DNA from: Escherichia phage MagusPhagus
Sequence record: PP925836.1
Reading direction: 5' to 3' (one strand)
Length of the DNA stretch: 54,396 nucleotides
A program made the translations under genes and the position numbers. The notes beneath the pieces were generated by a model. The model made no database searches. It saw only the letters and a list, made by a program, of their open reading frames with translations, and had not been told where the DNA came from. Within the stretch, counting starts at the first letter, position 1. Every line of letters starts with the position of its first letter. Below, one piece after another: positions 38,296 to 44,381 of the stretch.

Positions 38296-38320
38296 CAAAA
38301 ACCCGGCGCGGTGCCGGGTA
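38296..38320 (-). terminator. Rho-independent terminator immediately upstream of the holin gene (tR'-like position)
   Basis: Hairpin CCCGGC-ACCGCG-CCGGG followed by a T-run on the - strand. Confidence 0.55.
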
Positions 38321-38381
38321 ATTACAATTTCGCATTGTTAGGAAATATTTTAATCTATTTGTTTTTTATGCGCGATTATGT

Positions 38382-38558
38382 CTACAGTTTCCTGATTAAC
38401 AGACCATTATCAAGTAATAATTGCATTTGCTCGCGGCTCATTAGTGAATCTTTCCAGTATGGGTCATCAATAGTCATAATCATCACTTTGTCGCCTTTTA
38501 GCATGTAGGCTATACCGAACAAAGCATGTGAATAAACACCATCTTCGATCTCGTTCAT
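38382..38558 (-). CDS. Small protein (58 aa), paralog of the next gene upstream
   Basis: ATGA overlap with the upstream stop; N-terminus MNEIEDGVYS matches MIEDGVYA of 38555..38737. Confidence 0.4.
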   Translation of the reverse strand: MNEIEDGVYSHALFGIAYMLKGDKVMIMTIDDPYWKDSLMSREQMQLLLDNGLLIRKL

Positions 38559-38737
38559 AGGTCGCTAACCTTTACCAGTTCACCAGCATCAAGAAATATT
38601 TTAATTGTTTCTCGCGTCGTCTTAATGATTGGCGCTACCCACTCGCCACAGCCAACGCGGATACGAATATCATCGCCTTCTACGCGATAAAACAGCCTGT
38701 CAACTACTGTTGCTGCGTACACGCCATCTTCAATCAT
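38555..38737 (-). CDS. Small protein (60 aa), paralog of 38382..38558
   Basis: ORF with conserved N-terminus; accessory region. Confidence 0.4.
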   Translation of the reverse strand: MIEDGVYAATVVDRLFYRVEGDDIRIRVGCGEWVAPIIKTTRETIKIFLDAGELVKVSDL

Positions 38738-38973
38738 TTCTTACGCTCCTTAATGGCTCGCATGATGTTAATGCGCATGGCGTCACCGAATGCGTATATC
38801 GTAATGAAAGGCCAGAAGACTAGCTCGAACCAAATAATGCCGTCACTATCAACAGCTTTCTGAAAAGCGCCCATTAAAATGACGCCAGCCAGGTAAATGA
38901 TAACTACCGCAATAATAAGGCATTCAATCATAATCATCCTCATCGTCTTCATATTCAGCCATGAACTCATCAA
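38734..38973 (-). CDS. Small membrane protein (79 aa, two predicted TM segments)
   Basis: Hydrophobic segments LIIAVVIIYLAGVILMGAF and FELVFWPFITIYAF. Confidence 0.4.
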   Translation of the reverse strand: MMSSWLNMKTMRMIMIECLIIAVVIIYLAGVILMGAFQKAVDSDGIIWFELVFWPFITIYAFGDAMRINIMRAIKERKK

Positions 38974-39184
38974 CCACGCGGTAAGTTACTGGCGGGGTGT
39001 ATTCGAAATCATCAGAATCGAGATCAAGCGTCCGGCTGTCGCCGTCATCGTCCAGCGTGTTCATCCCTAATTCACCGAAAGGGCCGTAACCAATACAGCC
39101 AAAGTATTCGTGTCCAGTAGTAAAGCCAGGGTATTCGCCTTTGCACCTGATCTTGTATAGCTTACTTGATGCGCTCAATTTCAA
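38924..39184 (-). CDS. Hypothetical acidic protein (86 aa)
   Basis: ORF; Asp/Glu-rich C-terminus. Confidence 0.35.
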   Translation of the reverse strand: MKLSASSKLYKIRCKGEYPGFTTGHEYFGCIGYGPFGELGMNTLDDDGDSRTLDLDSDDFEYTPPVTYRVVDEFMAEYEDDEDDYD

Positions 39185-39485
39185 TTCCCCCTTCTTCTCC
39201 TTCAGTCATTTTGTATTCTGCCGCCAGTTCAGCCCCAACCAATTCAACATCAATTTCACCTATTCCAGGGAACGCCAGATAGGCAAAAATAAGGCTTTTA
39301 ATTCTATTCAGGTCTTCAAGATGGTCTGCATTAAAAGGCGGTTCAGTTACATGGAAGCATTTAACGTGCGTGTCGTCTTCAGTGGCTACACGGAAACATG
39401 CGCCAGGTTGTCCGGCGAATTGTCCTAATCTTTCCTCGTTCTGGAGAGTTCCACGGAAAACTTTAACGCTGATAAATTTACTCAT
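39162..39485 (-). CDS. Hypothetical protein (107 aa)
   Basis: ORF with strong RBS GAAGGAG. Confidence 0.45.
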   Translation of the reverse strand: MSKFISVKVFRGTLQNEERLGQFAGQPGACFRVATEDDTHVKCFHVTEPPFNADHLEDLNRIKSLIFAYLAFPGIGEIDVELVGAELAAEYKMTEGEEGGIEIERIK

Positions 39486-39747
39486 TGTTTATTCTCCTTC
39501 GTAAAGAGTCGTCACCAGTTCGGCGTCAATTAGCGTGTTATGATCTGTATAAAACCCGTGGCGCATTGCGAAAGCTATTTCACCAGCCATTTTTCGCCAC
39601 ATAGGGAGAGATTCATTCAAGTATGTTTTTCCAATTCCTCATTGTATGCCAGTTCATAAAAACGCCCACGATTAACATCTTCAATGACGCGGCTGTATTC
39701 ACCATCAAGCCTACTAACTCCGCGCCATAGTCTAAATACAACCATAA

Positions 39748-40077
39748 TTAATACTCCGCACCAGGTAAGCTACGCGCTTTATGCACGGTGTCCTTTTCAA
39801 GCCACATATTAGAATGCATATCCATTGTGGATATAGCGGCAACTGGCGCATAATTATTTACTGAGTGTATGTGAAATAGTTGATTTCTGGTAAAAATCAT
39901 ATCGTCATCGGTTATATATAACCAATCGCCGCGCTTACCAACAACAACATGAGATCTGCCTAAGCTGTCTTTAAATTCATAATTGCAGAAAACATCATCG
40001 TTAGGGACTTCAACAAAACAGCAAGCAATAAATTTAGCGCTTTTCATAATTACACCCTTCTGGTTTGATGGGGCCAT
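39748..40077 (-). CDS. Hypothetical protein (109 aa; start may be the internal MKSAKF)
   Basis: ORF in the accessory region. Confidence 0.4.
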   Translation of the reverse strand: MAPSNQKGVIMKSAKFIACCFVEVPNDDVFCNYEFKDSLGRSHVVVGKRGDWLYITDDDMIFTRNQLFHIHSVNNYAPVAAISTMDMHSNMWLEKDTVHKARSLPGAEY

Positions 40078-40090
40078 CCGGCCCCGTGTT

Positions 40091-42483: not shown

Positions 42484-42487
42484 CCCG

Positions 42488-42718
42488 TTATGCTGTTGTG
42501 TAGCTGTCAGTCAGTATTTCATCTTTCATCCTGGCAAGCTGTGCGATGTTCATCGTGTAGCCGCCATCAGCGAAAAGCAATTCCGCCGCCGCGCGACGAA
42601 AAGCAATATCATCATGGTTACGTGTCCATGTAGCGATCACAACGCGTTTCCCGTTAGTGGCGAACATAGACAATTCATTATCAACAACGTCGATAGCCTG
42701 CCAGATTTTTAATTCCAT
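42488..42718 (-). CDS. Hypothetical protein (76 aa)
   Basis: ORF. Confidence 0.35.
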   Translation of the reverse strand: MELKIWQAIDVVDNELSMFATNGKRVVIATWTRNHDDIAFRRAAAELLFADGGYTMNIAQLARMKDEILTDSYTTA

Positions 42719-43074
42719 GATTTATCCACGTAGATCTTGAATAGTTCGCGCTCTTCCTGGTCTTCAACTATCCCTATATGCAGATCACGCAGGCGGCGCA
42801 TTGTGCGGAATCGTGGCCTGAACTCCTGACTGCGTTTAATGTATTTGCCGCCAATTGAATAAATATGACCGTATGAGTACCATCTATTCCCTACCCATAT
42901 TTCATATTCTTTGTCTTCGTAATTGAATTTTATCGTTAGCTCGCCGACTTCAACTATTAACCCTTTGTCAATAATGTCATTGAGCATTTCGTCCCATTCT
43001 TTGAGGAATGGTTGTTGATAAAAACCAAAAAGCGTATTCACAGCATGGCAAAGATAATCAATGATTATTTGCAT
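42709..43074 (-). CDS. Hypothetical protein (121 aa)
   Basis: ORF. Confidence 0.35.
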   Translation of the reverse strand: MQIIIDYLCHAVNTLFGFYQQPFLKEWDEMLNDIIDKGLIVEVGELTIKFNYEDKEYEIWVGNRWYSYGHIYSIGGKYIKRSQEFRPRFRTMRRLRDLHIGIVEDQEERELFKIYVDKSWN

Positions 43075-43078
43075 ATTG

Positions 43079-43297
43079 TCACCACATCATATAATAAACG
43101 TTATCATCAGCTAATAAGTCGGCGTCATCCTGAGTCATGTGTCTGGCCTCAAGGAAAAAATCCTCATCATGCCATTCACTAACAAGTAATCGCGCCCATT
43201 TTCGGCGCTGGCGCTTATTGCGTCGCAGATCATCAAAAGCCTTTAACGCTTTGTCATACGCCCTTACCAGGCGTTTACGGTTACTTTTCATTTTCAC
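43079..43297 (-). CDS. Hypothetical basic protein (72 aa)
   Basis: ORF. Confidence 0.35.
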   Translation of the reverse strand: MKMKSNRKRLVRAYDKALKAFDDLRRNKRQRRKWARLLVSEWHDEDFFLEARHMTQDDADLLADDNVYYMMW

Positions 43298-43628
43298 CTC
43301 TCAACATCCAATTTCTGTCACATTTAATTGCGAATACCTTAACAGGATCAGGGCCGAATAATGGATGAGTGATAGTTTTTACTTCGTACCCAAAATAAGG
43401 AAGGTTAATAATCCTGTGTTTTTCGTGGTTGGCAGGGTATCCCCATTTAATAATCAGGCGTTCATATTCCCGCCCTTCCAGACGTTTACGCCAATAGTCA
43501 TTATAAAGCCGGTATTCCTCCACCTTCTTTCCAGTCCATATGGCGTGGAAATATTCCCCTTTCAGATTCAAATGCAGGTCTTTACTTGCCATCGCTATGA
43601 TCCTGTAAACAGTCGTTATAGCCTTCAA
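43281..43628 (-). CDS. Hypothetical protein (115 aa)
   Basis: ORF. Confidence 0.35.
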   Translation of the reverse strand: MKAITTVYRIIAMASKDLHLNLKGEYFHAIWTGKKVEEYRLYNDYWRKRLEGREYERLIIKWGYPANHEKHRIINLPYFGYEVKTITHPLFGPDPVKVFAIKCDRNWMLRGENEK

Positions 43629-43887
43629 TGTATCCGGTTAATCCCGTGTTACTCACTGACCAATCAGCCGAACGGCGCTTGATGGCATCATCCATCGTTA
43701 TTTCACCTTTGCGGTGACATCCTGCATCAATGTAACGGTTGACAACTGAAGACAACCGCCCGCGTAACTGTTGTGTTCCGGCGTAATGACGGGCCGTTTC
43801 CGTCAGATCGTTAACCAACTGGCGGTAAATATGCTCTTTTAATTTAGGCTTCATTATCGTCACCCTCGAAATACTGCTCAATCGCAC
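43582..43887 (-). CDS. Hypothetical protein (101 aa; start may be the internal MKPKLKE)
   Basis: ORF. Confidence 0.35.
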   Translation of the reverse strand: MRLSSISRVTIMKPKLKEHIYRQLVNDLTETARHYAGTQQLRGRLSSVVNRYIDAGCHRKGEITMDDAIKRRSADWSVSNTGLTGYIEGYNDCLQDHSDGK

Positions 43888-44191
43888 GCTTGACGTTCAT
43901 TTCACGCTGATAATTGTTATCGCTATAGATTGCGGCTGCCGATACGTGATCGATAATTTGCTGCAATAAAGCAGGATGAATTTTTATTTTTTCGTCAAGG
44001 ACAATACGCGATGGCTTAGGTGCGGTAGCAATATCATAAACGATTTCTATCTCACCACGACCACCGCATCGCGGGCAAACAAACTTATCGTCTTGATACA
44101 GCATGAAGCCGCAACCTTTTTCAGTTTTTACTACCATGCCGTCATCGTCGCAGTTTTCGCAATACAGCCACCCAATATTAAGTATTTTCAT
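43844..44191 (-). CDS. Zinc-ribbon protein (115 aa)
   Basis: ATG 44191 with RBS GGCGGAG; CxxC...CPRCGG motifs (YCENCDDDG...FVCPRCGGRGE). Confidence 0.4.
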   Translation of the reverse strand: MKILNIGWLYCENCDDDGMVVKTEKGCGFMLYQDDKFVCPRCGGRGEIEIVYDIATAPKPSRIVLDEKIKIHPALLQQIIDHVSAAAIYSDNNYQREMNVKRAIEQYFEGDDNEA

Positions 44192-44381
44192 TGTCGTTAC
44201 TCCGCCCGTAAATATGAACCGGCTCAATTGGCACGGCTGGCAATTCACCTTCGTTTAATGCGCTCGCCATACCCAATACCAAACGCGCTTCAGCACCAGT
44301 GACTTTCTTACACCATGCACCGCCTGTTTTATCTTCAAATAAGATAACGGCAAACTGATCGTTTATTTCCAGCTTATCCAT
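44178..44381 (-). CDS. Hypothetical small protein (67 aa)
   Basis: ORF; 1-nt overlap with the Q-like gene stop. Confidence 0.35.
   Translation of the reverse strand: MDKLEINDQFAVILFEDKTGGAWCKKVTGAEARLVLGMASALNEGELPAVPIEPVHIYGRSNDNENT

Follow-up and report, generated by a model that had tools for sequence, protein, structure and literature searches.

In the canonical cassette of lambda-Q-family antiterminators, the Q gene is directly followed by the late promoter PR′, after which come a sigma-dependent pause element and then a terminator, and NusA is required (PMC9388147). The pause element of lambda, AACGAT, occupies positions +1 to +6, and its role has been described (PMC4005639). Antitermination has also been published for the mEpimmI (mEp021-like) coliphages, a group of Nus-dependent, non-lambdoid temperate phages (GenBank MH706966 and PP180001-5) in which Gp17 of mEp021 is an N-like early antiterminator; the mEp021 paper gives no late-promoter position (PMC11893012). 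The present analysis concerns the late-gene switch of Escherichia phage MagusPhagus (PP925836.1), whose DNA of 54,396 nucleotides (nt), referred to as the window, is by its sequence a member of the mEpimmI group. In the window, a block of small accessory genes of about 6 kilobases (kb) separates the Q gene from the holin gene. With a probability of roughly 0.6, the late switch would correspond to a lambda-type Q cassette split in two, in which the target of Q lies 6 kb away from its gene, before the holin. The late promoter and the terminator would most likely both be located in the 106-nt gap preceding the holin, and the accessory block would most likely be delayed-early, upstream of a displaced late promoter, and not Q-dependent late cargo. 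Since earlier publications already cover the phage group as well as the terminator and the variable region, the gain is a refinement and not a new system.

Q, the accessory block, the holin and the lysis genes all lie on the minus strand, as do all features of the window for which coordinates are given here. The 106-nt gap before the holin consists of AAAACAAATAGAT-TAAAAT-ATTTCC-TAACAAT followed by 14 nt, a hairpin and a T-run. The proposed −10 element, TAAAAT (38347-38352), matches five of the six −10 positions and predicts a transcription start near 38340/38339, and TAACAAT (38334-38340) contains the hexamer AACAAT, the proposed sigma-70-dependent pause element, which corresponds to AACGAT of lambda. 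At the level of sequence, TAAAAT-ATTTCC-TAACAAT (38352-38334) places a pause-type element where it would be expected, at about +1 to +6. A conserved 13-nt block that adjoins the −10 on its upstream side (38353-38365; AAAACAAATAGAT in the window, and AAAACAAA[TC][AG]GAT across the group) was considered a candidate Q-binding element. Between the pause element and the late genes stands a terminator whose T-run ends at +43, and transcripts stopped there would have a predicted length of about 42-48 nt. A stricter composite pattern gave one match in the whole 54-kb window, at the gap before the holin.

The terminator, proposed as the tR′ equivalent (38291-38319), is formed by a 7-base-pair G+C-rich stem (ACCCGGC/GCCGGGT, 38319-38301) with the 5-nt loop ACCGC, followed by the T-run TTTTGCTTTG; it is strong and lies 24 nt upstream of the holin ATG (38276), with the holin ribosome-binding site GGAGG (38288-38284) starting 2 nt past its tail. 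The 71-nt stretch that includes it (38270-38340) presented a predicted fold of −24.1 kcal/mol (z = −2.9). A generic terminator scan of the region revealed 13 sites against 10.5 in shuffled sequences, which is no excess, and the support for this terminator comes from its strength, position and conservation and not from the number of sites. In relatives, it is annotated as TERM_5 or T9, and it is probably the t5 that is called experimentally demonstrated in the mEp021 paper (PMC11893012), considering that the order TERM_1-TERM_5 in the mEp021 record matches t1-t5. The stem, the fold energy and the position bear out the first-pass annotation, made from the letters of the window, which had placed a terminator directly before the holin and had proposed that it must be read through by antitermination. 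This second proposal also stands, because the holin and the genes downstream can be reached only past the terminator, and the 24 nt before the holin ATG leave no room for a late promoter downstream of it.

The conservation of this module was evaluated in two sets of loci. The first 44 viral loci were retrieved with the motif itself and are uninformative on invariance within it; in these loci, a constant 79 nt separated the module from the holin start, and at least four different genes were found on its upstream side. The second set was retrieved by the holin protein, the motif not being used, and TAAAAT and TAACAAT were invariant in 51/51 loci obtained in this independent way; all 44 close relatives in this set kept both elements, three of them with a single change in the spacer. 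Per-site diversity, computed over 34 unique sequences, was 0.00 for the −10, the pause element and the 3′ stem, 0.006 for the T-tail and 0.016 for the 5′ stem, increasing to 0.08 in the 13-nt block upstream of the −10 (and to >0.2 further upstream), 0.14 at holin third codon positions, 0.16 in the spacer and 0.23 in the hairpin loop. This pattern of sequence diversity is the one expected of discrete functional elements. The gap before the holin was also better conserved than the open reading frame (ORF) upstream of the gap. In two loci of the first set (L040 and L046), the module was retained before a holin allele only 56% identical, and in a prophage found by BLAST (L056) it precedes a holin of the HP1 family that shares the divergent 5′ sequence; being kept before a divergent holin allele, the module behaves as an independent mosaic unit. 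It is carried by 35 of 5,426 complete Escherichia coli genomes (about 0.6%). What has been established directly is the presence of the genes, of the terminator and of the sequence elements described here, together with the conservation of these elements and their agreement with the cassette layout of other lambda-Q-family phages.

This layout was compared with that of other lambda-Q-family cassettes. In five reference phages (lambda, ST104, ES18, a Proteus phage and Evi), the cassette comes directly after Q and consists of a −10, 5-6 nt, (T/C)AAC.(A/G)T and then a terminator. For a broader survey, lambda-Q-family loci were taken from IMG/VR, resulting in 54 unique viral loci outside the mEp group. 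Since a first, strict pause-element pattern missed half of the other loci of the family, a relaxed pattern, TAnnnT-N5-8-AA[CT][AG][ACG]T, was sought from −60 to +150 nt of the Q stop, and it was found in 54/54 viral loci against a background of 0.025 per 210 nt. A hairpin with a T-run followed the pattern in 53 of these loci, ending at +53 to +391 (median +68), and lambda tR′, at +193, was also recovered in this way. Among prophages of many genera, the relaxed pattern was matched by 49/79 loci, and inspection of the non-matching ones revealed that all but about three share the layout, with a −10 or pause hexamer outside the pattern. Three prophage loci, L204, L263 and L277 (Edwardsiella, Mangrovibacter and Photorhabdus), were the only surveyed loci without a recognisable cassette beside Q, and they may be decayed prophages or may carry further displaced cassettes. 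The first-pass annotation had stated that the interval after Q is normally short, which held for the distance between Q and the promoter: 9-127 nt in the scored loci versus 1.9-6.7 kb in the mEpimmI phages.

In the window, no conserved PR′ was found directly downstream of Q. No conserved regulatory DNA follows the gene, whose stop overlaps the next start (ATGA), and homology among seven aligned genomes ends exactly at the Q stop. The earlier assumption that late transcription crosses the whole interval between Q and the holin is not supported by this arrangement, in which the layout of −10, pause element and terminator stands at the holin end and no regulatory DNA is conserved after Q.

Several observations weigh against a late promoter before the holin. 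The relaxed pattern is not rare by itself, with 27 matches in the window over both strands. No −35 element is recognisable in the window, where ATCGCG stands at a 17-nt spacing, and the relatives present TTGTGG or TTGTAG at this position (three of six matches), whereas every other lambda-Q-family cassette inspected has a good −35. Moreover, a generic promoter consensus scan, whose counts equalled those of shuffled sequences, did not flag the site, and the leader would be shorter than in all 54 comparison loci, with the end of the T-run at +43 versus a minimum of +53. The putative Q-binding block was assigned by position and conservation only. Finally, the homolog of an accessory gene product, that of g10, is associated with the virion in mEp021, which late expression would fit better.

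This last observation would also suit a late promoter situated where Q ends or immediately beyond, as in lambda and the Shiga toxin (Stx) phages, in which case the 6-kb block would be Q-dependent and the terminator an internal stop to be ignored. Such an order, with the promoter directly after Q, is the canonical one and was that of all 54 viral loci, and a loose match to it exists in the window, formed by GTGACG, 17 nt, TAAGCT, 7 nt and AACGAT (44376-44358). The core of this match, TAAGCT-GGAAATA-AACGAT (44358-44376), was recognised by the relaxed pattern and designated candidate A; it lies inside codons 2-8 of the accessory gene g01, is not conserved and has no terminator closely after it. 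Candidate A is changed to GACAAGTTAG, with an altered −10, in one allele, loses its pause hexamer (AACATG) in a divergent g01 allele and is deleted in L056, and mEp021, mEp515 and mEp044, having no g01, do not contain it. Because genomes without an intact site keep Q and the late genes, candidate A was rejected as the late promoter and was considered a by-product of the coding sequence. A promoter beside Q would, in addition, leave the invariant TAAAAT-N6-TAACAAT before the holin unexplained, and we regard it as rather improbable. It is also unlikely that the phage has no dedicated late promoter and that the polymerase of the early operon is the sole source of late transcripts, either by Gp17 read-through or by sigma-70 re-binding with Q loading. 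The lack of a −35 in the window, the early operon running on the same strand and gapless into the module, and the Gp17 antitermination documented for the phage group are all in line with such a source; nevertheless, every other cassette of the family includes a promoter, the spacing of TAAAAT and AACAAT is exactly that of a −10 and a +1 pause element, and Gp17 read-through alone would make the conserved Q and pause element unnecessary.

A particular version of promoter-independent loading was also contemplated, in which sigma-70 would recapture the polymerase of the 15-kb early operon at TAAAAT/AACAAT and Q would load there. No precedent is known to us for the loading of Q on a promoter-distal complex. 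This version, to which little weight was given, would account for a −35 region that is free to vary and cannot be recognised in the window, and, if true, the module would be a checkpoint turning early into terminator-proof late transcription. The gap might also be nothing else than the terminator of the early operon, with the conserved block serving, for example, as an RNA leader for holin translation or RNA stability. In the predicted fold, AACAAUGCGAAA and the U-rich tail pair around the hairpin, which is compatible with a leader of this kind, and the terminator is the sole element with likely experimental support. Against it, no Rfam match was obtained in a scan of the whole window, the likeness to a cassette in sequence, spacing and order would be a coincidence, and the lysis genes would be left without a defined source of timed transcription, so that this explanation appears very improbable.

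If the late promoter lies before the holin, the following sequence of events may be proposed. Early rightward transcription would be made termination-resistant by Gp17 at nutR1 and nutR2 and would proceed through ninG, rusA and Q and then, with no gap, through 24 accessory genes, whose co-production with Q by early read-through would make them delayed-early. RNA polymerase would also start near 38340, at the TAAAAT promoter, sigma-70 would re-bind AACAAT at about +1 to +6, and the enzyme would pause near +16. In the absence of Q, transcription would stop at the hairpin and T-run, releasing an RNA of about 45 nt, whereas Q, together with NusA, bound at the conserved AAAACAAA..GAT block would render the polymerase termination-resistant, allowing it to read into the holin, endolysin, Rz, packaging and structural genes. 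As the late start would be located about 40 nt upstream of the terminator, the accessory genes would remain outside the late transcript. The elements described above serve as the basis for predicting that the promoter is active, that the enzyme pauses, that Q binds and that the accessory genes belong to the delayed-early class.

Compared with lambda, whose late control cassette comprises Q, pR′, QBE, a sigma-dependent pause at +16, tR′ and 6S RNA, the window presents a homologous Q and the same order of a −10, 6-7 nt, an AAC.AT pause-type hexamer, an intrinsic terminator and the lysis genes. However, the lambda promoter is found about 45 nt past the Q stop instead of 6 kb away, its leader has 194 nt versus about 45 nt in the window, where no −35 match exists, and the arm of the window Q has two extra CxxC pairs. 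With Stx phages such as 933W, the window shares a multi-kilobase non-essential cargo block between Q and the holin. In Stx phages, the cargo, to which tRNAs and stx belong, is placed downstream of pR′ and tR′ and is, hence, Q-dependent and late. In the window, by contrast, the conserved cassette is found downstream of the cargo, which should be Q-independent given its position upstream of the predicted promoter, and neither transfer RNA (tRNA) genes, in a scan of the whole window, nor toxin genes were found. The interval also resembles the lambda nin region, a set of small, non-essential delayed-early genes that lies between P and Q and is read under N antitermination, in its dense small same-strand genes with overlapping stops and starts, an early rightward promoter and an N-type antiterminator; nonetheless, the block of the window runs on past Q, whereas that of lambda ends at Q, and none of the 25 ORFs of the interval matched a named Nin family.

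The Q gene (44381-45109) encodes a protein of 242 amino acids (aa), a late antiterminator of the lambda-Q family. By sequence comparison it is a true member of this family, as the first-pass annotation had suspected in calling it Q-like: it matched Pfam PF03589 (E 2.3e-31, 108 bits versus a cutoff of 26.7), displayed 35% identity with lambda Q (BLASTP, E 1e-47) and matched the Q-lambda chains 7UBM (E 3.5e-39) and 4MO1 of the PDB, and its N-terminal segment is conserved over seven family members. Its zinc-ribbon arm is enlarged, with four CxxC pairs, two of them additional, a feature likewise found in ST104, ES18 and others. The Q proteins of the mEp group, 84-95% identical, form an isolated subfamily, and searches of phage records, of IMG/VR and of a collection with one genome per species retrieved no Q protein of between 83% and 40% identity. 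Just upstream of Q in the window are ninF, ninG and rusA, and between the cytosine methyltransferase gene and ninF a nutR2-like site was recognised by inspection (46517-46550), composed of a boxA-like TGCTCTTTAA (46550-46541) and a boxB-like GCGCTGAAATGCGT with an A-rich loop (46530-46517), in agreement with the position of nutR2 downstream of the methyltransferase gene (PMC11893012). At the high end of the window, the homolog of Gp17 (53609-53896; 93% over 96 aa in a tblastn search with mEp021 gp17) marks the point from which a long early operon extends, on one and the same strand, to the accessory block. A repressor homolog, 96% identical to that of the group, is found at the low end (4-597), and the location of these two genes at opposite ends makes the window look like a complete, circularly permuted genome cut inside the immunity region.

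From Q to Rz (37100-45700), the window is 86-90% identical, where aligned, to mEp010, mEp554, mEp044, mEp013, mEp021 and mEp515, and mEp010 covered 88% of the searched 8.6 kb at 90% identity. Q, the holin, the terminator and the homologs of Gp17 and the repressor are shared with the mEpimmI phages, whereas mEp021 has only 8 of the 25 interval ORFs of the window, in 2 kb, and the window carries g04 and g12-g14 in addition to the genes of mEp010. The distance from Q to the module in 19 complete intervals varied from 1.9 kb, in mEp021 and mEp515, to 6.7 kb, and no prophage with Q directly abutting the module was found, the shortest interval being 1.9 kb. A 60-nt gap after Q in L056, considered as an abutting case, was discarded as a deletion scar fusing g01 to g02. 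In this prophage of E. coli E21845/O/A, only the first nine codons of g01 are left at the scar (3550-3620 of L056), fused to the last codons of g02. Comparison of the interval across related phages, which had been suggested as a means of separating core from cargo, divided the 19 intervals into the core genes g07-g11, present in all of them, and a flexible remainder, each gene of which is found in 2-17 of the 19.

With start positions refined, the interval itself was resolved into 25 ORFs of 37-121 aa, all on the same strand. They occupy 98.6% of 38382-44381, and in most cases the stop of one ORF overlaps or abuts the start of the next and a Shine-Dalgarno-like sequence is present. These ORFs represent 24 genes, since g19 and g20 are the halves of a single frameshifted gene of 84 aa, and the packed interval of small genes recorded from Q to the lysis cassette by the first-pass annotation is, with this count, upheld. 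PHROG matches were obtained for 20 of the 25 ORFs, every family being of unknown function, and Pfam searches with 20 ORFs (g01-g18, g21 and g22) produced no match reaching the threshold, with only weak matches to the DnaJ zinc finger and SpoU_C. On the Q side, the flexible genes g01-g06 (42709-44381) occur in 6-17 of the 19 complete intervals. They include g02, whose two CxxC pairs are consistent with the zinc-ribbon protein noted before, and g04, the family of which is annotated as ASCH or 'RNA-binding' in other phage records and is widespread, with homologs in 933W and Salmonella phages, for instance near the EaA gene of 933W-type phages. The core genes g07-g11 (41553-42718) display 72-99% identity. 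Inside g08, a terminator-like hairpin, AAGCGGGATAAAACCCGCTT followed by TTTTGTT (42430-42459), may be a further stop for early transcription to pass, and the corresponding site of mEp515 and mEp554 carries an ARNold terminator annotation. The core gene g09 has relatives in rV5-like myoviruses. The product of g10 (41767-42015) is 96% identical to mEp021 gp41 (mEp021_41), a protein detected in virions by mass spectrometry (PMC11893012). The gene is encoded outside the structural cluster and, with the late promoter before the holin, would be upstream of it.

The core is followed by an array of paralogs, g12, g13, g15 and g16 (40332-41553), each present in 2-10 of the 19 intervals, which belong to one family: g13 and g15 were linked by phmmer (E 4e-5), and jackhmmer over the interval ORFs of the group joined all four. 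The gene g14 is located amid the array and was not linked to this family. The array had been noticed in the window before and proved to be real, and g24/g25 form a second pair. The remaining flexible genes, g17-g25 (38382-40339), include g19+g20, g22, g23 and g24/g25. The ORFs g19 (42 aa) and g20 (43 aa), at 39489-39745, are the N- and C-terminal halves of the 84-aa phrog_32200, a gene that is intact in L051 (97.5% identical), mEp010 and mEp554, and the frameshift could be that of a pseudogene or a sequencing error. The product of g22 (38924-39184) has a net charge of −15 over 86 aa and a D/E-rich C-terminal tail, a composition resembling that of DNA-mimic anti-restriction proteins, an idea that no homology backs. 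In g23, described earlier as a protein with two transmembrane segments, one strong hydrophobic span was found; the second is weaker, and this part of the description was only partly confirmed. Beyond the module, the first late gene is a class II holin of the HP1 family (38076-38276; PF16080, E 1.6e-14), followed by the endolysin, a lysozyme (37583-38155 as the listed ORF; PF00959), Rz (37125-37613; PF03245) and an embedded Rz1-like ORF taken from the ORF list (37193-37405).

If the late promoter is indeed located before the holin, annotation pipelines should not assume that pR′ lies beside Q, and the module would represent a natural, very compact Q-lambda-type loading site, whose leader of about 45 nt would make it convenient for studies in vitro. 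The 24 accessory genes would be expressed early, together with Q and independently of it, which would suggest functions in host takeover or counter-defence rather than at the time of lysis. According to an old observation, lambda Q acts preferentially in cis. In the mEpimmI phages, Q and its target would be separable by up to 6.7 kb of hypervariable DNA, an arrangement that would have a bearing on this preference.

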